Below are positions 2,323 to 58,068 of a stretch of 64,000 nt of DNA, one piece after another. The notes beneath the pieces are model-generated. The model was not told where the DNA came from, did not search any database, and saw only the letters and a program-made list of their open reading frames with translations. The first letter of the stretch is position 1, and each line of letters opens with the position of its first letter. This DNA is from Escherichia phage vB_EcoM_SP13. The translations under genes were made by a program, and so were the position numbers. The stretch lies in the sequence record OP352608; one strand, 5' to 3'.

Positions 2323-2350
2323 ATTATAATATAGTGTAGAAAAAAGTAAA
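2323..2350 (-). promoter_or_regulatory. sigma70-like promoter (cassette copy A) for gene 1970..2254
   Basis: On minus strand: -35 TTTACT, 16-nt spacer, -10 TATAAT, then the conserved leader ATATCGGGACGGGATGAGTTAGCGAATAGGTCG shared with copies B and C. Confidence 0.55.
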
Positions 2351-2394: not shown

Positions 2395-2422
2395 TTTACT
2401 TCTTCGTACACTCGCGTATACT
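2395..2422 (+). promoter_or_regulatory. sigma70-like promoter (cassette copy B) for gene 2479..2781
   Basis: -35 TTTACT (2395-2400), 16-nt spacer containing GTACACT, -10 TATACT (2417-2422), followed by TTGTTTATATCGAGACGGG. Confidence 0.55.
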
Positions 2423-2792: not shown

Positions 2793-2821
2793 TTTACTTC
2801 TTAGTACACTAAGACTATAAT
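2793..2821 (+). promoter_or_regulatory. sigma70-like promoter (cassette copy C) with structured leader for gene 2889..3179
   Basis: -35 TTTACT (2793-2798), 17-nt spacer containing GTACACT, -10 TATAAT (2816-2821); leader 2837-2869 GGGATGAGGTAGCGAATAGGTCGCTACCCTCCC can form a stem-loop. Confidence 0.6.
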
Positions 2822-4496: not shown

Positions 4497-4593
4497 ATCA
4501 TTACCTTTAATATTTGGGTGATTAACAATAACTATAATAAAGCCGCATAGCGCGGCATTCAAATCGATTTATTAATTGTGACGATTGGATTCA

Positions 4594-4788
4594 TCAATCG
4601 ATACCAACTGAGCCGATGTGCTGAAAGAACTCTGAATAAACTTCCTTCCAGTACTTACGCGCTGCTTTCTGGGCTTGTCCTTTGCGCTTGAAGCTTTTGC
4701 CTTGAAAGATGAAACGGTCGCTTGTCGCGCGATACTCCACCACACCTTCCAGCCATTGTAAGAATGCTACTGATTCATTTTTATTCAT
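4594..4788 (-). CDS. hypothetical small basic protein (64 aa)
   Basis: GAGGT RBS. Confidence 0.55.
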   Translation of the reverse strand: MNKNESVAFLQWLEGVVEYRATSDRFIFQGKSFKRKGQAQKAARKYWKEVYSEFFQHIGSVGID

Positions 4789-4795
4789 TTCAACC

Positions 4796-5194
4796 TCAAT
4801 ATTTTAATAAGAAAGCACCCAACCAACTTTCCTCAACCTCGCGGCCAGTAGCCACACGGTCGGTCTTGGCTATGGGTCTGGATTCGCCGCAGGGCAACCC
4901 GTCTTGTAGTTGTGTACTATTGCCAATTCTCACCAGAACCTTTCCATCAGGGTCGATATAAGCGCGACAACCCATGATTTCGAGTCGTTGTAGACACTGG
5001 CGAATCGTTTTCAGCTTCTCACCGGACCGGATAGAGCGCGGTCGCGACCGCTGACCGTTCTTATTTACTGTACGCTTGAAGACCGGAATATCATTGGTGC
5101 GTTGCGGCTTGGGTCGGTAGTAGGCTTCTTCGCCAGGAGTCGCACCTGGCGTCAATTCGCGCTTGAGCGCCTTTTCAATATCAATGATCATAAT
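4796..5194 (-). CDS. hypothetical basic protein, possibly nucleic-acid binding
   Basis: ORF trimmed to MIIDIEK start, which overlaps the stop of the upstream peptide gene (TAATG); Arg/Lys-rich centre. Confidence 0.5.
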   Translation of the reverse strand: MMIIDIEKALKRELTPGATPGEEAYYRPKPQRTNDIPVFKRTVNKNGQRSRPRSIRSGEKLKTIRQCLQRLEIMGCRAYIDPDGKVLVRIGNSTQLQDGLPCGESRPIAKTDRVATGREVEESWLGAFLLKY

Positions 5195-5292
5195 TATGCC
5201 GCAGCAGCGTGAATTATTGCGTAAACAATTCCTAACAGGGCGACAACGCAAACAGTGCCCCAAAATGCAAAGCGTCGTGCCTCTTTATCCAT
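5194..5292 (-). CDS. 32-aa single-pass membrane peptide
   Basis: MDKEARRFAFWGTVCVVALLGIVYAIIHAAAA; start overlaps the stop of gene 5285..5572 and stop overlaps the start of gene 4796..5194 (translational coupling). Confidence 0.4.
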   Translation of the reverse strand: MDKEARRFAFWGTVCVVALLGIVYAIIHAAAA

Positions 5293-5572
5293 TGTCCACC
5301 GCCCCAATATCCATGAAATTAAAAACCAATTTCGCCATTTCATCTTGTGAAATGACATTATAGTGCTTAGGCAAATCGCTTTCTGATAATACCTTCTGGG
5401 CTTCTTCTTTTGTCTCAAAGAGAGGGATGCACCAGTTTACTGCTTCACCAGATTCATTACTGTCTACTTGCTTTAAAAAGACCAAGCGGTTATCTTCAGG
5501 ATCAATGCCGCAGATGACGTATTTTGGCAATGCTTTTGCTTTTTGAGTCTTATCAATATCTTCAAATTTCAT
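5285..5572 (-). CDS. hypothetical protein (95 aa)
   Basis: ORF trimmed to MKFEDID with GAGGTG RBS. Confidence 0.6.
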   Translation of the reverse strand: MKFEDIDKTQKAKALPKYVICGIDPEDNRLVFLKQVDSNESGEAVNWCIPLFETKEEAQKVLSESDLPKHYNVISQDEMAKLVFNFMDIGAVDNG

Positions 5573-5653
5573 AATACACCTCACTTGTTAACGTATAATG
5601 AGTATAACTTAATAGCGCATAAAGTAAAGGCGCTTTTCAGCGCCTTGAGTGAA

Positions 5654-8001: not shown

Positions 8002-8343
8002 TTAATTTCTTTTGAGAGGAATATGACGGTGGCTGCCATTATTTGGTTTAATAATGAGCATAAAAACGATTAGAAAGATGATGGCTGATATACTTAATTC
8101 AATCAGCGCGGCTTGAGATATAGATTGATCTTCGTGATACTGCTTTTGCATTTCTGCTTTCTTCTGAGCGCAAACTTCAGGTGATATGTAATCGCCTTTT
8201 GAGTTGCCATAATAAATTTCGCCGTTTTCAGAAATCAGTCTGCCGCAAATATCCGTTTCAGCCTTTGCACTTGACATCATAATAACGGTGCCGATAATAG
8301 CGGCGATAGTCCAGATTAACAGTTGTGATAAAGTGTTGTTCAT
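8002..8343 (-). CDS. membrane or exported protein (signal-peptide-like N-terminus and C-terminal transmembrane helix)
   Basis: ORF trimmed to MNNTLSQ with AAGAGG RBS; hydrophobic LLIWTIAAIIGTVIMMSSAKA and ISAIIFLIVFMLII segments. Confidence 0.55.
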   Translation of the reverse strand: MNNTLSQLLIWTIAAIIGTVIMMSSAKAETDICGRLISENGEIYYGNSKGDYISPEVCAQKKAEMQKQYHEDQSISQAALIELSISAIIFLIVFMLIIKPNNGSHRHIPLKRN

Positions 8344-8984: not shown

Positions 8985-9199
8985 CAGTCTTCACCTTGAG
9001 ATTCCAGACAAGTAAGGACAAGCCAAGTCATCGGAAGAATCAAAACCAGAGAAATGAGGGACCAGATAGACCAGCACAGGATGACAGACTTGAATGTGTG
9101 AACGTCGCCAAACGCAGCAGTAAAACAGAATCCCATTACAAATGCAATAGCGGTGGAATGGTTGTCTATGGCTTTGATGGCACGGTCGATGAGTTTCAT
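8984..9199 (-). CDS. small membrane protein with holin-like topology
   Basis: GGAGGT RBS; 71 aa with two or three hydrophobic helices; no adjacent lysin, so a holin role is speculative. Confidence 0.5.
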   Translation of the reverse strand: MKLIDRAIKAIDNHSTAIAFVMGFCFTAAFGDVHTFKSVILCWSIWSLISLVLILPMTWLVLTCLESQGED

Positions 9200-9348
9200 A
9201 TTACCTCCGGTTTTGAGTTAATATGATTATAACGCAGAGTCTCAGAAAGGCAAACTTTTTGTGAATTTTAATCAAAAAAAATGGCCAGAAAAAAATCTGG
9301 CCGAAAGATCACCCTTTATCCACTACTAAGCTGGAATCATAATTTTAC

Positions 9349-9378
9349 TTGATATAGCTTGTACAAGCAAACTATAAT
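9349..9378 (+). promoter_or_regulatory. promoter-like element upstream of the terminase gene
   Basis: -35 TTGATA, 18-nt spacer, -10 TATAAT abutting the ATG at 9379, which would favour the in-frame ATG at 9412 as the real start. Confidence 0.4.
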
Positions 9379-10839
9379 ATGAATAAAATATTAACACATA
9401 ATTGGAAATTCATGTACCAGTTGAATCCTGCTTTAAAAGAAGTCTGGAAGACAAAAGCGCGATACAAAGTAATATACGGCGGTCGTGCATCTTCCAAATC
9501 GCACGATGCCGCTGGTTTTGCTATTTATTTGGCGGCAAACTTCAAATTAAAATTCCTTTGCGTTCGACAATTCCAGAACAAAATTTCTGAATCTGTATAT
9601 ACTCTATTAAAAGACAAAATAGAGATTTCTGATTTCAAAGATGAGTTCAATTTATTAAAGAACTCTATTGAACATAAAAGAACTAAATCTGAATTTCTAT
9701 TTTACGGTATCGCACGTAACGTTGATGAAATTAAATCAACAGAAGGTGTTGACGTCCTTTGGCTGGAAGAAGCGCACGCGCTTACTGAAGAACAGTGGGA
9801 CATTATTGAGCCGACAATCCGTAAAGAAGGGTCCGAAATATGGATCATCTTTAACCCCGATGAAGAGGCCGATTTTGTCTACCAAAACTTTGTTATGCGA
9901 CCGCCGAAGAATGCCATTGTTAAAAAGATAAACTGGCAAGACAATCCATTTTTGTCGCAAACGATGCTGGACGTTATTGCAGGCATGTACGAGCGCGACC
10001 CGAAAAAGGCAGAGCACGTTTATGGCGGCGTGCCGAAGACTGGCGGCGATAAATCTGTAATCAACCGCGCATTCGTTAAGGCCGCGCTTAATCTCCACAA
10101 ACACCCTACGCTGGGATGGAGTTTGTCAGGGTCTAACCGTATAGGCTTTGACGTAGCGGACGATGGCGACGACCTTAACGCCACTGCATTCGTTACAGGA
10201 AACGTATTGCGCGGCATCAAGACATGGGAAGGTCTGGAAGATGAATTGTTAAAATCGGCAAGCGGAGTTTGGAAAGATGCGCTTACATTTGGCGCTTCTA
10301 TAACTTATGACGCCATCGGTGTCGGCGCTTTTGCTGGTTCAAAATTTGATGAACTGAACGAGTATGCAATACATGAAAATCCATCATTTCCAAGAATCGA
10401 ATTTAATGCGTTCAATGCGCAAGGGTCTGTTGATGATCCTGATGACGTTTTTCTTGAATTACCACACGTTGAAATACTCAATAAAGACCATTTCGCAAAC
10501 ATAAAAGCGCAAAAGTGGACTGAAATTGCAGAGAGATTCAGAAAGACATACGAATATGCAACTGGGCAAGCCGTATATCCGACTGATGAGTTGATTTCAA
10601 TCGACACCGATGGCATACCAGAACTTGGAATTCCAGCTTGGACTACTGAAGAGATTGAGACGTTTCTTTTTGAGATGTCAGCGCCGCGCAAAGATACGTC
10701 TGTTCTTGGCAAGTTCAAAGTTGAATCTAAAAAGGATATGGCAAAGCGTGGAGTCAAATCACCTAACAAAGCGGACGCGGCAATCATGGCATTAATGAAA
10801 CCAATCGTTGCAGCATCCGGCTTCTTCTCTAACCTTTAA
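9379..10839 (+). CDS. terminase large subunit
   Basis: N-terminal deviant P-loop RYKVIYGGRASSKSH typical of large terminases, acidic nuclease-type C-terminal half, position upstream of the portal; alternative start at 9412. Confidence 0.85.
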   Translation: MNKILTHNWKFMYQLNPALKEVWKTKARYKVIYGGRASSKSHDAAGFAIYLAANFKLKFLCVRQFQNKISESVYTLLKDKIEISDFKDEFNLLKNSIEHKRTKSEFLFYGIARNVDEIKSTEGVDVLWLEEAHALTEEQWDIIEPTIRKEGSEIWIIFNPDEEADFVYQNFVMRPPKNAIVKKINWQDNPFLSQTMLDVIAGMYERDPKKAEHVYGGVPKTGGDKSVINRAFVKAALNLHKHPTLGWSLSGSNRIGFDVADDGDDLNATAFVTGNVLRGIKTWEGLEDELLKSASGVWKDALTFGASITYDAIGVGAFAGSKFDELNEYAIHENPSFPRIEFNAFNAQGSVDDPDDVFLELPHVEILNKDHFANIKAQKWTEIAERFRKTYEYATGQAVYPTDELISIDTDGIPELGIPAWTTEEIETFLFEMSAPRKDTSVLGKFKVESKKDMAKRGVKSPNKADAAIMALMKPIVAASGFFSNL

Positions 10840-15824: not shown

Positions 15825-15962
15825 ATGCAAAAGATTATTCAGTCACGTTATGTTAAAGTGCGAAATATTAATTGCAACTCTTTGCTTTCTTGGAAATGGG
15901 CTGTTTATGACTCGATGTTGATTGGCGTTTTAGTGGCAGGAGTGCTATTTAATATTCACTGA
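15825..15962 (+). CDS. 45-aa peptide with C-terminal hydrophobic helix
   Basis: Not in the ORF track (under 60 aa); strong AAGAGGA RBS 5 nt before the ATG; MLIGVLVAGVLF segment. Confidence 0.4.
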   Translation: MQKIIQSRYVKVRNINCNSLLSWKWAVYDSMLIGVLVAGVLFNIH

Positions 15963-16004
15963 ATTCATCGGCAAAGGATTGCCGCGAGTTTTATACGTAT
16001 AATG

Positions 16005-16270
16005 ACGTATCATCCGTATCAAGTAAGTTGTTGTTTTCAAAAGAATCTTACGGATGATACGGATGATACGCGTTGCCGCCGTACTATATAGGAATTCAAA
16101 TAAATTAATTTAAAATTATATATCTAATTTAATTTTATTTTTTTATAAACTCTTATATATATGAAAAGTATCCGTATCATCCGTATCATCCGTAGCACAC
16201 CAGTGATAGCGCGGCTTATACACCGATACGGATAAAAATACGCCTCATTTTATCCGTATCATCCGTATCA
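16005..16270. repeat. Iteron cluster (9-bp unit ATCCGTATC, direct and inverted) flanking an 85-bp AT-rich tract; candidate origin of replication or other protein-binding locus
   Basis: 16005-16020 direct; 16049-16072 inverted 2.5 units; 16081-16165 almost pure A+T; 16169-16194 direct 2.8 units; 16224-16233 inverted; 16251-16270 direct 2.2 units. Confidence 0.7.
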
Positions 16271-16385
16271 CACTAATAAAGGCGCGGCTATATCGGTTGT
16301 TATACATATTCAAACCATAATTATTGTTTGCCTAAGTTTTTTTCATTAGATATAATACACAATACTTATTTGAGGGTGGATGCGA

Positions 16386-37290: not shown

Positions 37291-37935
37291 ATGATTAATG
37301 CAAACGTAATATCTAAAGGGACCGGATGCAGCATGGATGTTGCTGAAAAATGGGTCGACCCCTTCAAGCAGGCTTGTGAGCACTACGGAATCAAAAGCAA
37401 GAATGCCATCGCGGCGTTGCTTGCAAACGTAGGAGTAGAAACAGGCAGTATGAAGACTTTTGTGGAGAACTTGAATTACTCCGCTCAAGGTCTTGCGAAT
37501 ACATGGCCTAGCCGTTACAGCGCCAGCGGTCGTTTCGGTGGCGCACCAAACTCCTTGGCATTGTCTATTGCCCGTAAACCAATGGAAATCGCCAATAATA
37601 CATATGCAAACCGAATGGGCAATGGTTCGGTAGCATCTGGCGACGGTTGGAAGTACCGTGGCCGTGGTGCCATTCAGCTGACTGGAAAGGCTAACTATGC
37701 AGAGTATTCAAAGCAATCAGGGTATGATGCATTGAATAACCCTGACATTTTGACTGAGCCGAAACACATCGCTGACAGCGCGGCATGGTTCTTCAAGAAC
37801 AGCGGTTGCATCCCACTTGCTGATGCTGGCGCATTTGATTCGACTGTGAAGCGGATTAACGGGGCCGCGCCGAATACGGCTAACCATGGAGATTTGCGAC
37901 GGAAGCGTTACAAGGATGCACTAGCAGTTATGTAA
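37291..37935 (+). CDS. endolysin, glycoside hydrolase family 19 (chitinase-like)
   Basis: AALLANVGVETGS and KYRGRGAIQLTGKANY match the two conserved GH19 catalytic-region segments; no transmembrane segment. Confidence 0.85.
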   Translation: MINANVISKGTGCSMDVAEKWVDPFKQACEHYGIKSKNAIAALLANVGVETGSMKTFVENLNYSAQGLANTWPSRYSASGRFGGAPNSLALSIARKPMEIANNTYANRMGNGSVASGDGWKYRGRGAIQLTGKANYAEYSKQSGYDALNNPDILTEPKHIADSAAWFFKNSGCIPLADAGAFDSTVKRINGAAPNTANHGDLRRKRYKDALAVM

Positions 37936-38730: not shown

Positions 38731-38813
38731 TATAATTCACCTTTTGATTACGAATATTAATAGTATAGGCCGAAGGTTTTGAAAGTAAATAAGGCGAAAG
38801 GTAAATAAAAGAA

Positions 38814-40474: not shown

Positions 40475-40990
40475 TTATTTTTCCTTTGATGCATTGAATT
40501 GATCGATTTTTATTTTAGCCTGATTATAAGTATCAATCAAGCTATTAACTTTCTCTTTTAATCGATTTGTTTCTGCGGCGAACTGAACAAGAAATCTGAC
40601 ATCCTCTTCTGATAGTCCACAGTTTCCTTCTGGGATAGAGAGGCGTCCAGTGGTCGCAGAGTCGGGCACACTCCTGAGTAACTCACGGGAGCAGCTGAGT
40701 TGCTCGCGCAACTTGACATTCCCAGACTTGTAACGAGCAATAGTGTCATCAGCAACCAGTTGCGCTTCCTGGCGACCCTTCTCATATGCCGATGCCGATT
40801 CAACCTGTAAAGTTGCAATTTGCTCTTCGAGTGCATTTATCTTGTCCTTACGCTCATTAAGCGATGTCAGATATTGATTATCCTTGGCCAGTGATGCGTT
40901 GGTTTGCTGCAGGTCTTCAACGTATGATCCAGCGGCAAACGCGCCAACAAGGGCCAGAATCTTCAGGAGCGGTACAATTCTTTCTATCAT
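40475..40990 (-). CDS. i-spanin (Rz-like)
   Basis: N-terminal transmembrane helix IVPLLKILALVGAFAAGSYV followed by coiled-coil-like region; contains an embedded lipoprotein ORF in another frame. Confidence 0.55.
   Translation of the reverse strand: MIERIVPLLKILALVGAFAAGSYVEDLQQTNASLAKDNQYLTSLNERKDKINALEEQIATLQVESASAYEKGRQEAQLVADDTIARYKSGNVKLREQLSCSRELLRSVPDSATTGRLSIPEGNCGLSEEDVRFLVQFAAETNRLKEKVNSLIDTYNQAKIKIDQFNASKEK
40558..40785 (-). CDS. o-spanin (Rz1-like outer-membrane lipoprotein) embedded within the i-spanin gene
   Basis: MRRVARKRNWLLMTLLLVTSLGMSSC: basic n-region, hydrophobic core, lipobox-like MSSC; short Pro-containing mature part with a second Cys. Confidence 0.55.
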   Translation of the reverse strand: MRRVARKRNWLLMTLLLVTSLGMSSCASNSAAPVSYSGVCPTLRPLDASLSQKETVDYQKRMSDFLFSSPQKQID

Positions 40991-55619: not shown

Positions 55620-55647
55620 TTGACTTTGTATCACTCAATATTATACT
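55620..55647 (+). promoter_or_regulatory. sigma70-like promoter for the primase unit
   Basis: -35 TTGACT, 16-nt spacer, -10 TATACT, then AAAGGAAAGAAAG RBS and ATG 55677. Confidence 0.55.
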
Positions 55648-57258: not shown

Positions 57259-57522
57259 ATGGGCGCTTTCCGTAACGAGTTCACCTGGAACGTTACCAGC
57301 AATCTCTCGACTTGTCCTAACTGTGCAAGCGATGTTATCAAGGTGCGGCAGCATCGCAACGCGGAGGAAGGTGCCTGGGAAGATGGCGACCTTGTAGAGT
57401 GCCAGTGCTGCTCTCATGAAGGTGTTGTTGAGCTTCAAGCTGGTGAAGGTTGCCCACCAGCAGAGCGCACAGCACGCGTTGAATGGGATGCAACAGACTC
57501 CATTGGTGATCCTCAACAGTAA
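57259..57522 (+). CDS. small zinc-ribbon protein
   Basis: ORF 57193..57522 trimmed to ATG 57259 after AAGAGGTG; CPNCAS and CQCCSHEG cysteine clusters. Confidence 0.5.
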   Translation: MGAFRNEFTWNVTSNLSTCPNCASDVIKVRQHRNAEEGAWEDGDLVECQCCSHEGVVELQAGEGCPPAERTARVEWDATDSIGDPQQ

Positions 57523-57540
57523 ATTTAGGTATAGATACTT

Positions 57541-57645
57541 ATGAAAGCCGTAAAGAAATACACATTAATCATTTCCCTTGTCATCATCCTGGGGCTATTA
57601 TATGTATTGGATATGGCATATTATTTGGCAGGGGTGAGTGGATGA
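57541..57645 (+). CDS. 34-aa hydrophobic membrane peptide
   Basis: MKAVKKYTLIISLVIILGLLYVLDMAYYLAGVSG; stop overlaps the start of the next gene (ATGA). Confidence 0.35.
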   Translation: MKAVKKYTLIISLVIILGLLYVLDMAYYLAGVSG

Positions 57646-57932
57646 ATATTGTAATTCTTTATGGTGAAAATATCAGCGATGACGACATCGAAGTTGCCGT
57701 TGATGTTTACGGTATCGATGAGGTGAAACGTGTTGAAGAAATTAGTGGCGCAAATCTCAATGAGATTGTCAAAGAAGCTTGCTGCCCTTCGGAAGAGATT
57801 CTGGTGGTTACTAACGATGACCTGTCTTCTATGGATCATTTGCGCCGCATCTTCACCGATTGCCAATACCTTCATGCTGTTCAATCAGTAAACAAATTGA
57901 GAAAGGCATACGCCAACCAATTTCCTTGCTGA
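57642..57932 (+). CDS. hypothetical acidic protein (96 aa)
   Basis: ORF. Confidence 0.5.
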   Translation: MNIVILYGENISDDDIEVAVDVYGIDEVKRVEEISGANLNEIVKEACCPSEEILVVTNDDLSSMDHLRRIFTDCQYLHAVQSVNKLRKAYANQFPC

Positions 57933-58068
57933 TAGTTCACCAGTTATATTGCTTTAAATTGAGTTTTACTATATTAATATACAACGCCAGATTTCTGGCG
58001 TTTATTTACCGCACCCTGAAAGGATATATCCATGCAACAATATAACAAAGCCGTATCAGGAGGATTAA

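Follow-up and report, generated by a model that had tools for sequence, protein, structure and literature searches.

A conserved 32-codon gene for a predicted membrane peptide, probably coupled in translation to a 131-aa gene, in phages of the genus Wifcevirus

Is the short open reading frame at positions 5194-5292 (minus strand) a gene, and if so, what could a peptide of only 32 residues contribute to a virulent phage? The frame lies in the window, by which we mean the whole 64,000-nt stretch of DNA analysed here, whose gene labels of the form F13_xxxx are those of the GenBank annotation of Escherichia phage F13, genus Wifcevirus. A preliminary description made from the letters alone had picked out this frame together with two similar short hydrophobic ones, at 57541-57645 (34 aa, plus strand) and 15825-15962 (45 aa, plus strand), and all three are indeed present. 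We refer to them in that order as P1, P2, and P3. The account that we consider likely as a whole is that P1 is a genuine membrane-peptide gene that also acts as a relay in an accessory module, that P3 is real as well, and that P2 is a plausible further case.

Judged by its pattern of variation among related genomes, P1 is a real, conserved protein-coding gene of Wifcevirus. The frame, which runs from an ATG at 5292-5290 to a TAA at 5196-5194 and specifies MDKEARRFAFWGTVCVVALLGIVYAIIHAAAA, is uninterrupted and exactly 32 codons long in 24/24 related genomes or contigs, representing 22 DNA haplotypes. Variable sites are distributed 6/4/21 over the three codon positions (third positions 21 of 31, p=9e-5, 24 genomes), and the variants comprise 27 synonymous and 11 non-synonymous changes against a neutral expectation of 75% non-synonymous (p=3.5e-9). 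The corresponding pN/pS, about 0.14-0.19, is level with that of the neighbouring 131-aa gene (0.22). Among relatives the stop codon alternates between TAA, TGA, and TAG at an unchanged position, and 1-nt length variation is confined to the spacer of 2-3 nt on its 3' side. No other frame of the six is open throughout the 20 genomes checked, each of the remaining five being broken in some, and among 40 open reading frames in gaps only P1 has a codon-position bias. Its codon usage is typical of the phage and scores higher than that of all 204 out-of-frame ORFs. Because the comparison set is a single genus at 85-100% identity, in which variable sites do not count as independent events in the phylogeny, the constraint on P1 is established over a short evolutionary span only.

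The gene that follows, F13_0031 (4796-5191, minus strand), encodes a protein of 131 aa and is the constant partner of P1: it lies directly after P1 in 24/24 genomes and occurs only in Wifcevirus. Its ATG (5191-5189) is placed 2 nt past the P1 TAA, or 2-3 nt in relatives, without overlap. P1 had been described as sharing stop and start codons with its neighbours on both sides; this holds upstream, where the overlap is 8 nt, but not downstream, where the short spacer intervenes. Residues 1-28 of the 131-aa protein do not vary although the underlying DNA changes synonymously, which fixes the start of the gene at the ATG beside the P1 stop. This start has no Shine-Dalgarno (SD) sequence of its own, its predicted pairing of merely -1.7 kcal/mol falling among the weakest 5% of genes. 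The missing SD, taken together with the geometry of the junction, indicates that the 131-aa gene probably depends on translation of P1. Ribosomes that end P1 would re-initiate 2-3 nt further on, and P1 would thereby also be a translational relay that sets the expression of its partner. The 131-aa protein itself has no PHROG, Pfam, or PDB match, and its AlphaFold2 model (pLDDT 46) is unusable, being too poor for a fold search.

Could the relay be all there is to P1? It would then be translated just to deliver ribosomes to the 131-aa gene, and the peptide would be functionless and degraded. Such a role is consistent with the SD-less start so close behind the P1 stop, and also with the extreme shortness of P1 and its lack of homologues in PHROGs, Pfam, and the PDB and outside Wifcevirus. 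However, a pure relay requires merely an open frame, so that its ratio of non-synonymous to synonymous change should be near 1, whereas the ratio seen is as low as that of the neighbouring gene. The length fixed at 32 codons and the hydrophobic character kept in every replacement likewise speak against it, and we regard a function confined to the relay as unlikely.

The build of the peptide points to the membrane. A charged N-terminus, MDKEARR, is followed by a 25-residue hydrophobic helix that reaches the C-terminus (...IIHAAAA), and a charged tail is absent. The single helix of the preliminary description is borne out both by hydropathy, with a best 19-residue Kyte-Doolittle window of 2.44, and by an AlphaFold2 model consisting of one helix over residues 3-31 at a pLDDT of 90. 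Replacements within the hydrophobic stretch are all conservative (V/I, V/A, L/F, H/Y); the replaced residues cluster on one face of the helical wheel, a pattern that is suggestive only and not significant (p=0.10). Most likely the product is a micro-protein of the inner membrane whose N-terminus faces the cytoplasm, and it would be inserted post-translationally, since the helix clears the ribosome only at termination. Tryptic digestion would yield a single, very hydrophobic peptide, and the search database of the published mass spectrometry did not contain P1 (PMC7048862).

All three peptides share the build of a micro-protein, that is, at most 50 aa, one hydrophobic helix, and a charge bias that would orient it, the N-terminal charges ahead of the helix lying in MDKEARR for P1, in MKAVKKY for P2, and for P3 in a stretch of 25 residues that includes 5 Lys/Arg. 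AcrZ, MgtS, PmrR, KdpF, and CydX are small single-pass inner-membrane proteins of E. coli or Salmonella; bacterial proteins of this kind have fewer than 50 aa, have routinely escaped gene callers, and bind larger membrane proteins within the bilayer. Like P1, P2, and P3, they consist of one hydrophobic helix with positive charges on its N-terminal side, but the three peptides studied here are phage-encoded and have no sequence similarity to them in searches of PHROGs, Pfam, and the PDB, and P1 has virtually no residues C-terminal of the helix. The type I toxins TisB, Hok, Ldr, and Ibs are stand-alone peptides of 19-50 aa repressed by antisense RNA. They too are hydrophobic single-helix peptides and insert in the inner membrane, whereas P1 has a strong SD and is translationally linked on both sides. 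As regards an antitoxin RNA, no Rfam family was found in the window, and the antisense frames and strand of P1 have no conserved feature in 20 genomes.

As far as can be read from the arrangement of genes and predicted signals, a small unit that has a promoter and a terminator to itself contains P1 and the 131-aa gene as its constant core. The unit sits just 3' of the variable tail-fibre gene. Its promoter is followed by one or two small genes that vary, then by P1, the 131-aa gene, a further small gene, and the terminator. The tail-fibre gene is closed by a terminator-like hairpin (5646-5627, minus strand), directly after which comes a sigma-70-like promoter, TTTACT-N16-TATACT (5628-5601, minus strand), the whole element spanning 5601-5646. 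The promoter-like motif is kept in 24/24 relatives and the hairpin in 23/24, at 255-541 nt upstream of the P1 ATG. The same motif also occurs at other intergenic sites, including some before non-structural genes. At the other end of the unit, the 64-aa gene F13_0030 (4594-4788, minus strand; SD pairing -6.3 kcal/mol) is the last before a second terminator-like hairpin (4542-4556, minus strand).

The slot upstream of P1 is variable. In the window it holds the 95-aa gene F13_0032 (5285-5572, minus strand), whose stop overlaps the P1 start by the 8 nt mentioned above (ATGGATAA), and relatives carry other or extra genes there. Whatever gene stands before P1, its stop either overlaps the P1 start or adjoins it, and this junction is retained behind three or more upstream genes that are unrelated to one another. 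The gene overlapping the P1 start has been seen by mass spectrometry as vB_Eco4M-7_26, the Eco4M-7 orthologue of F13_0032 (5 peptides, 62% coverage), and as ECML-117 gp23 (2 peptides) (PMC7048862). A programmed frameshift that would fuse P1 with the upstream gene was considered and rejected, given this exchange of unrelated genes before P1 and given that, in WFC-type genomes, an in-frame TAA stands directly 5' of its ATG. The 3'-terminal part of the upstream gene contains the SD-like sequence of P1, GGAUAUUGGGGCGGUGGA (5295-5312, minus strand), with a predicted pairing to the 3' end of 16S rRNA of -8.2 kcal/mol, better than that of 91% of the annotated genes in the window. Where relatives have another gene before P1, G-rich SD-like sequences (GGGGGA, GGAGAAGG) were likewise recognised, by eye and unscored.

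In its layout the unit recalls the morons, independent promoter-gene-terminator insertions (PMC3594210) that are known chiefly from temperate phages, to whose lysogens they are of benefit. The P1 unit shares with them promoter- and terminator-like signals of its own, variable cargo, and a position beside a horizontally mobile tail-fibre gene, but it belongs to a virulent phage, and its core, P1 with its 131-aa partner, is fixed throughout the genus. An origin of the module in the host or in a plasmid was also considered and rejected, as searches of 5,426 complete E. coli genomes and of the PLSDB plasmids found nothing that matches the module.

P3 is a second and independent real gene with a build like that of P1, again on the evidence of codon-level variation. 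It corresponds to the annotated 45-aa gene F13_0044 (15825-15962, plus strand) and combines a basic N-terminal part with a C-terminal hydrophobic helix (...LFNIH). Variable sites are distributed 2/0/8 over the codon positions, with 10 synonymous changes and 1 non-synonymous (p=2e-6) and a pN/pS of 0.03. Located at the end of the head-gene operon, it has a good SD sequence (AAAGAGGAAG, pairing -6.0 kcal/mol) and is followed straight away by a terminator-like hairpin (15969-15984, plus strand). Comparison with PHROGs and Pfam gave no significant profile match, only phrog_16923 at E=0.026. A match to P3 in Pantoea phage PA1, which its paper assigns to the family Chaseviridae, was judged to be due to chance (E=2 over 20 residues).

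The case of P2 (57541-57645, plus strand; product MKAVKKYTLIISLVIILGLLYVLDMAYYLAGVSG, with C-terminus ...AGVSG) is less settled. Its composition and codon usage make a third membrane-peptide gene plausible, though unproven. Its 19-residue Kyte-Doolittle value of 2.43 is attained by only 2/283 small ORFs in the window, and its codon-usage score of 0.222 is above all 204 out-of-frame null ORFs. It also fills a 119-nt gap in a replication operon and closes in an ATGA overlap, in which its TGA meets the start codon of the 96-aa gene (57642-57932). The pattern of substitution, on the other hand, carries no signal (variable sites 3/2/1, 2 synonymous versus 5 non-synonymous, p=0.52, pN/pS 0.68), and the SD is weak at -3.7 kcal/mol. 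These last features would be expected if P2 were a chance open frame in a conserved non-coding or regulatory stretch before the 96-aa gene and primase, as would its place in some 550 nt of low diversity, where synonymous diversity is 0.03 compared with 0.26 in the gene just upstream. An RNA explanation of the region gains nothing from Rfam, which has no match in the whole window, or from its folding, which is ordinary (z=0.19). P2 is intact in 27/28 records; the exception, AV128, has a frameshift that would speak for a non-gene, but the insertion falls in an A-run and could have arisen in sequencing. An apparent fusion of P2 with the next gene in AV128 was examined as well and discarded as a sign that the two are functionally linked, since the additional A ruins the peptide and does not create an in-frame domain fusion. 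On balance we give the non-coding reading of P2 somewhat less than an even chance. The ribosome-binding site or coupling signal that had been ascribed to both additional frames is thus a good SD for P3, while P2 has a weak SD only, together with the overlap of its stop and the next start.

What, then, might these peptides do? Holins are usually 60-150 aa long, have a charged cytoplasmic C-terminal tail, and are encoded beside endolysin and spanin genes. P1 resembles holins, pinholins, and antiholins in being a small phage membrane protein of an often poorly annotated kind, and a partnership with a holin or antiholin was part of the preliminary description, as were possible roles in membrane stress and superinfection exclusion. 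Several observations would suit a holin, antiholin, or lysis-timing partner among P1, P2, and P3, possibly tied to the short latent period: a holin annotation is absent from every Wifcevirus record examined, the endolysin has no strongly hydrophobic segment for self-export, and membrane depolarisation by small hydrophobic peptides is possible. Very fast lysis has moreover been reported in the genus (PMC11990801, PMC7048862). Neither location nor build agrees with such a role, however. P1, at 5.2 kb, is separated by about 32-35 kb from the endolysin (37291-37935) and the spanins (40475-40990), and P3 (15.8 kb) and P2 (57.5 kb) are separated from them by 17-22 kb or more; with no peptide near these genes, a holin or antiholin function is unsupported. 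The three genes stand in three separate transcription contexts (an accessory unit after the tail-fibre gene for P1, a replication operon for P2, the end of a head-gene operon for P3), and the sigma-70-like class of promoter found before P1 also fronts non-structural genes. Being 32-45 aa long and single-helical, and lacking a charged tail at the C-terminus, the peptides are unlike described holins; P1 has the predicted transmembrane helix, but it ends in AAAA with no basic charged C-terminal domain and falls short of 60 aa. We consider a lysis factor among the three highly improbable.

A role in the host envelope has a closer precedent in size. Iap of Pseudomonas phage D3, a 31-aa peptide, inhibits the O-antigen polymerase Wzy by imitating the second transmembrane helix of Wzz (PMC12004945, PMC4815439). 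If P1 were a decoy of this kind, it would mimic a transmembrane helix, bind a host inner-membrane complex, and alter the surface receptor, with the outcome that other phages are excluded or that progeny are spared adsorption to debris. Size and build match those of Iap (PMC12004945), both peptides being phage-encoded with one membrane helix each. The receptor is LPS or O-antigen in either group of phages, with Wifcevirus wholly dependent on the O-antigen (PMC11990801), and the P1 locus adjoins the receptor-binding tail-fibre gene. Yet D3 is temperate and carries iap beside a phage wzy in a serotype-conversion unit, whereas F13, like its genus, is virulent; neither a wzy nor a serotype-conversion gene is annotated in F13, Bas98, or Bas101, nor does the annotation of the window contain any other O-antigen gene. 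A phmmer search of P1 against all PDB chain sequences returned nothing at E≤10, a result of little statistical power for short helices; the PDB is expected to include Wzz structures. P1 is also near-identical in phages from O157, O16, and Shigella hosts, among which the Wzy proteins differ. Finally, the phage completes its cycle within roughly 10 minutes or less (PMC7048862), which leaves too little time for turnover of the O-antigen to count. A decoy function for P1 therefore seems very improbable to us, and we consider it very unlikely that P1 and its 131-aa partner form a new host-envelope effector of virulent, O-antigen-dependent phages, with P1 docking as a helix decoy onto a host complex such as the Wzy/Wzz machinery, or that P1 is the missing permeabilising element behind fast lysis.

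Our preferred reading is that P1 and the 131-aa protein are part of an accessory host-interaction module and not of the lysis machinery. The P1 peptide would act within the host inner membrane through helix-helix contacts, the weakest step of this account, and might either hold or assist its co-translated 131-aa partner or modulate a host membrane protein.

The status of the three genes in the databases is uneven. All of them appear as "hypothetical protein" in several relatives, examples being Bas98_0108, Bas98_0062, and Bas98_0007. They had been presented as missing from the ORF track, which is so for P1 and P2 in the F13 GenBank record but not for P3; as a class of under-annotated, translationally linked single-helix peptide genes, the description fits P1 and P3 and only possibly P2. 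P1, although clearly under purifying selection, is unannotated in F13 and in at least five further Wifcevirus records (Mansfield, Eco4M-7, EC150, RCIP0363, and ECO71P1), and in the Mansfield annotation the start of the 131-aa gene has been shifted downstream to reach a ribosome-binding site. Neither P1 nor P2 falls in a Pfam or PHROGs family at E≤0.1, and no relatives of P1 were found outside Wifcevirus. A concatenated query of P1, P2, and P3 had zero matches in a large protein collection, but the gene index of that collection lists 32-aa products at the P1 locus, so this null result says nothing about distribution. Scans of IMG/VR with the 131-aa neighbour and the primase recovered only four genomes, all of them already known.

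What has come to light here is a gap in annotation of the usual sort, and filling it supplies new members of a kind already known. Small membrane peptides of phages are a common class, and no new field is opened. Recognising that P1 and the 131-aa gene are coupled mends both the missing calls of P1 and the misplaced start in Mansfield. It also singles out these two genes as the sole fixed elements in a mosaic unit beside a horizontally exchanged receptor-binding fibre. Wifcevirus phages are of interest for therapy and have a very fast life cycle, and in this genus the pair of P1 and the 131-aa gene is a cheap and well-defined target.

The 32-codon minus-strand frame P1 is present as first described, with an ATG at 5292-5290 and a TAA at 5196-5194, between a 131-aa gene on its 3' side (F13_0031, 4796-5191) and a 95-aa gene on its 5' side (F13_0032, 5285-5572). 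Its product, MDKEARRFAFWGTVCVVALLGIVYAIIHAAAA, has a charged N-terminus (MDKEARR) followed by 25 hydrophobic residues that continue to the C-terminus. A Kyte-Doolittle 19-residue score of 2.44 and an AlphaFold2 model made up of one helix (residues 3-31, pLDDT 90) agree with the proposal of a single-helix peptide. By the positive-inside rule for membrane helices, the N-terminus of P1 should be cytoplasmic. P1 was said to be missing from the ORF track, which is true of the GenBank annotation of Escherichia phage F13, where a gap separates F13_0031 from F13_0032, but not of the related phages WFH, Bas98, Bas99, Bas101, kaset, and AV128, in which a 99-nt hypothetical gene is annotated at this position (it is unannotated in Mansfield, Eco4M-7, EC150, RCIP0363, and ECO71P1). 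The preliminary description made a sound catch: an annotation gap in the F13 record, at a gene already called in sister genomes.

The F13 record (OP745617.1, genus Wifcevirus, 68,786 bp) matches the window at 99.997-100% identity over its whole length, with the alignment wrapping round the record ends, and at 100% across 1.5 kb in the P1 region; a 303-bp segment (2587-2889) that is single in the window is a tandem double in the record (9139-9441 and 9442-9744), so the window must derive from an assembly or version of this genome that differs slightly. Wifceviruses are virulent myoviruses of E. coli and Shigella, distantly related to the Pseudomonas PB1-like phages (PMC11990801; PMC7048862), and their infection cycles are reportedly very short (PMC11990801; PMC7048862). 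No complete RefSeq E. coli genome carries the P1 region. One E. coli assembly (GCA_018093385.1) includes a complete Wifcevirus-sized contig (ABADYA010000024.1, 68,615 bp), probably a phage carried along in culture rather than a prophage.

To the extent that sequence comparison can establish it, P1 is a coding gene. A tblastn search of the phage collection matched its peptide in each of the 28 Wifcevirus records there and in no record outside the genus. The locus set comprised 24 genomes or contigs, with four more divergent ones reached via homologues of the neighbouring gene. Across 22 distinct DNA haplotypes the frame is exactly 32 codons long in 24 of 24 loci, the stop codon alternates between TAA, TGA, and TAG without changing position, and the sole length variation is a single nucleotide in the spacer between this stop and the next ATG. 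Third codon positions account for 21 of the 31 variable sites (binomial p=9e-5; 24 genomes or contigs), mean pS is 0.285 and mean pN 0.055 (a ratio of 0.19, with 0.22 in the adjacent 131-aa gene), and the distinct variants include 27 synonymous and 11 non-synonymous differences from the consensus, against a neutral expectation of 75% non-synonymous (p=3.5e-9). Among 20 genomes compared, each of the five remaining frames is broken in some. The codon usage score, 0.238, is higher than for any of the 204 out-of-frame ORFs of the window and lies inside the range of annotated small genes, and P1 is the only one of 40 ORFs in F13 annotation gaps to have codon-position bias. The eleven peptide variants differ by conservative exchanges only, and on a helical wheel every one of the nine variable helix positions lies within 140-340 degrees; the clustering (permutation test p=0.10) gives a hint, nothing more, that the invariant face (F8, W11, G12, C15, A18, L19, I22, I26, A29, and A30) is a helix-packing surface.

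Both a ribosome-binding and a coupling signal are found at the P1 start. For the 18 nt 5' of the ATG, predicted pairing with the 3' end of 16S rRNA is -8.2 kcal/mol, a Shine-Dalgarno (SD) pairing stronger than that of 91% of annotated genes in the window and equalled at only 0.5% of random positions, and the ATG shares an 8-nt overlap with the stop of the 95-aa gene (ATGGATAA). Behind at least three unrelated upstream genes in different phages the junction is kept, either as an 8-nt overlap or as a TAA immediately before the ATG. Overlapping stop and start codons had been claimed for both sides of P1, but on the downstream side the start of the 131-aa gene (5191) comes 2 nt after the P1 stop, without overlap. 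That gene has no SD sequence (-1.7 kcal/mol, in the weakest 5%), and its start is shifted downstream in the Mansfield annotation because the annotators found no ribosome-binding site. Residues 1-28 of its protein are nevertheless invariant among relatives despite synonymous DNA changes, which places its start at the ATG beside the P1 stop. The simplest reading of this geometry is termination and re-initiation, by which translation of P1 would feed the 131-aa gene.

P1 belongs to a small unit that has promoter-like and terminator-like signals of its own, beside the tail-fibre gene. Immediately 3' of that gene, a terminator-like hairpin (5646-5627, minus) precedes a sigma-70-like promoter, TTTACT-N16-TATACT (5628-5601, minus), and another terminator-like hairpin (4556-4542, minus) closes the unit; upstream of P1, the promoter-like motif is kept in 24 of 24 genomes, and 23 of them keep the first of these hairpins. 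Among these genomes the promoter lies 255-258, 290, 335-338, or 535-541 nt from the P1 ATG, so the slot ahead of P1 must hold different genes or gene numbers, and the many combinations in which P1 alleles, types of upstream gene, and variants of the spacer are found among relatives indicate a mosaic unit of which P1 and the 131-aa gene are the fixed core. It resembles a moron-type insertion adjoining the tail-fibre gene, and horizontal movement of tail-fibre receptor-binding domains is known (PMC11990801). By mass spectrometry (PMC7048862), products have been detected for the gene overlapping the P1 start in Eco4M-7 (vB_Eco4M-7_26; 62% coverage from 5 peptides) and for gp23, which has the corresponding position in ECML-117, so the unit is expressed; P1 itself was undetectable there because it was missing from the searched annotation.

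The motif (c)TTTACT(t)-N16/17-TATACT or TATAAT occurs at the P1 unit (5601-5628(-)) and five times elsewhere (2395-2422(+), 2793-2821(+), 2323-2350(-), 38762-38789(-), and 55620-55647(+); four of these five are intergenic), mostly 20-70 nt ahead of genes, and is probably a promoter class for host RNA polymerase. The main other membrane protein of the region is F13_0034, just upstream of the tail-fibre gene, whose shorter BASEL-style form (113 aa, 8002-8343, minus) combines an N-terminus resembling a signal peptide and two cysteines with a transmembrane helix at the C-terminal end and a basic tail; a PHROG search gave no match for it. A 35-aa ORF (845-952, minus; Bas98_0097), annotated in BASEL phages and unannotated in F13, overlaps its upstream gene by 4 nt and is intact in eight of eight genomes, with no codon-position bias (6/7/4).

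The other two proposed peptides differ in standing. P3 (45 aa, 15825-15962, plus) was not overlooked, being annotated in F13 (as F13_0044) and in most relatives, and its predicted ribosome-binding signal is a good one (AAAGAGGAAG, -6.0 kcal/mol). It begins 10 nt after a head-fibre-like gene and has a terminator-like hairpin directly 3'. With eight of ten variable sites at third positions, a pN/pS of 0.03, and 10 synonymous variants to 1 non-synonymous (p=2e-6), P3 is a real gene; its product is a peptide whose N-terminal part (25 residues) is basic and is followed by a hydrophobic helix at the C-terminal end. In the 420-nt intergenic region beyond it (15963-16385), an AT-rich core (16085-16165) is surrounded by copies of CGTATCATCCGTATCA (9-mer ATCCGTATC), five of them direct and several inverted; the arrangement resembles an iteron array, which would make this a protein-binding or origin-like region.

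P2 (34 aa, 57541-57645, plus), annotated as a hypothetical protein in several relatives, is a reasonable candidate for a membrane-peptide gene, and we lean towards its being real. Its hydrophobicity (2.43) is on par with that of P1, a level rare among the small ORFs of the window (reached by 2 of 283), its codon usage exceeds that of all 204 null ORFs, and it occupies a 119-nt gap between two genes. Of the translation signals proposed for it, coupling is represented by an ATGA in which the P2 stop overlaps the following start codon, but the SD sequence is weak (-3.7 kcal/mol). The substitution pattern (six variable sites, 3/2/1 by codon position; 2 synonymous and 5 non-synonymous variants, p=0.52) is uninformative because diversity is very low throughout the block of about 550 nt (57521-58060) in which P2 lies. 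This block, which also includes a 96-aa gene and the spacer that precedes the primase gene, is constrained at synonymous sites as well: synonymous diversity is 0.03-0.07, compared with 0.26 in the gene immediately upstream, and 30-nt bins hold 0-3 variable sites (6 in one bin), compared with about 5-6 just upstream (13 genomes). We found no RNA family and no unusual RNA folding in the block to explain this. In AV128, one extra A in an AAAGAAA run shifts the P2 frame and led annotators to call one 130-aa product in which the P2 start is fused to the downstream gene (AV128 588-980, corresponding to window 57541-57932); either the insertion arose in sequencing or it suggests that P2 is dispensable. 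A 39-aa hydrophobic ORF (57926-58045, plus; Bas98_0064), annotated in BASEL phages and unannotated in F13, overlaps the end of the 96-aa gene.

Nothing here points to a lysis role for any of the three peptides. The suggestion of holin or antiholin partners is not borne out: all three lie far from the recognisable lysis genes (endolysin, 37291-37935; nested spanins, 40475-40990) and in three unrelated transcription contexts, and none has either the typical size or the charged C-terminal tail of holins. Since the genus has no annotated holin, a lysis role keeps a small probability. For P1 and its 131-aa partner, profile, structure-sequence, plasmid, and E. coli genome searches returned no match, and the structure model of the partner was unusable. 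The closest analogue among phage products is Iap of phage D3 (31 aa) (PMC12004945; PMC4815439), an attractive parallel since Wifceviruses depend on the O-antigen as receptor (PMC11990801), but one that does not hold for gene context or for lifestyle, and a search with P1 against PDB chain sequences (E<=10) detected no similarity. Small membrane peptides are a well-known class, and the closest functional analogues overall are the small inner-membrane proteins of enterobacteria. We conclude that P1 and P3 are both genuine genes for small membrane peptides, and that P1, besides encoding a peptide, likely acts as a translational relay for its constant 131-aa partner.
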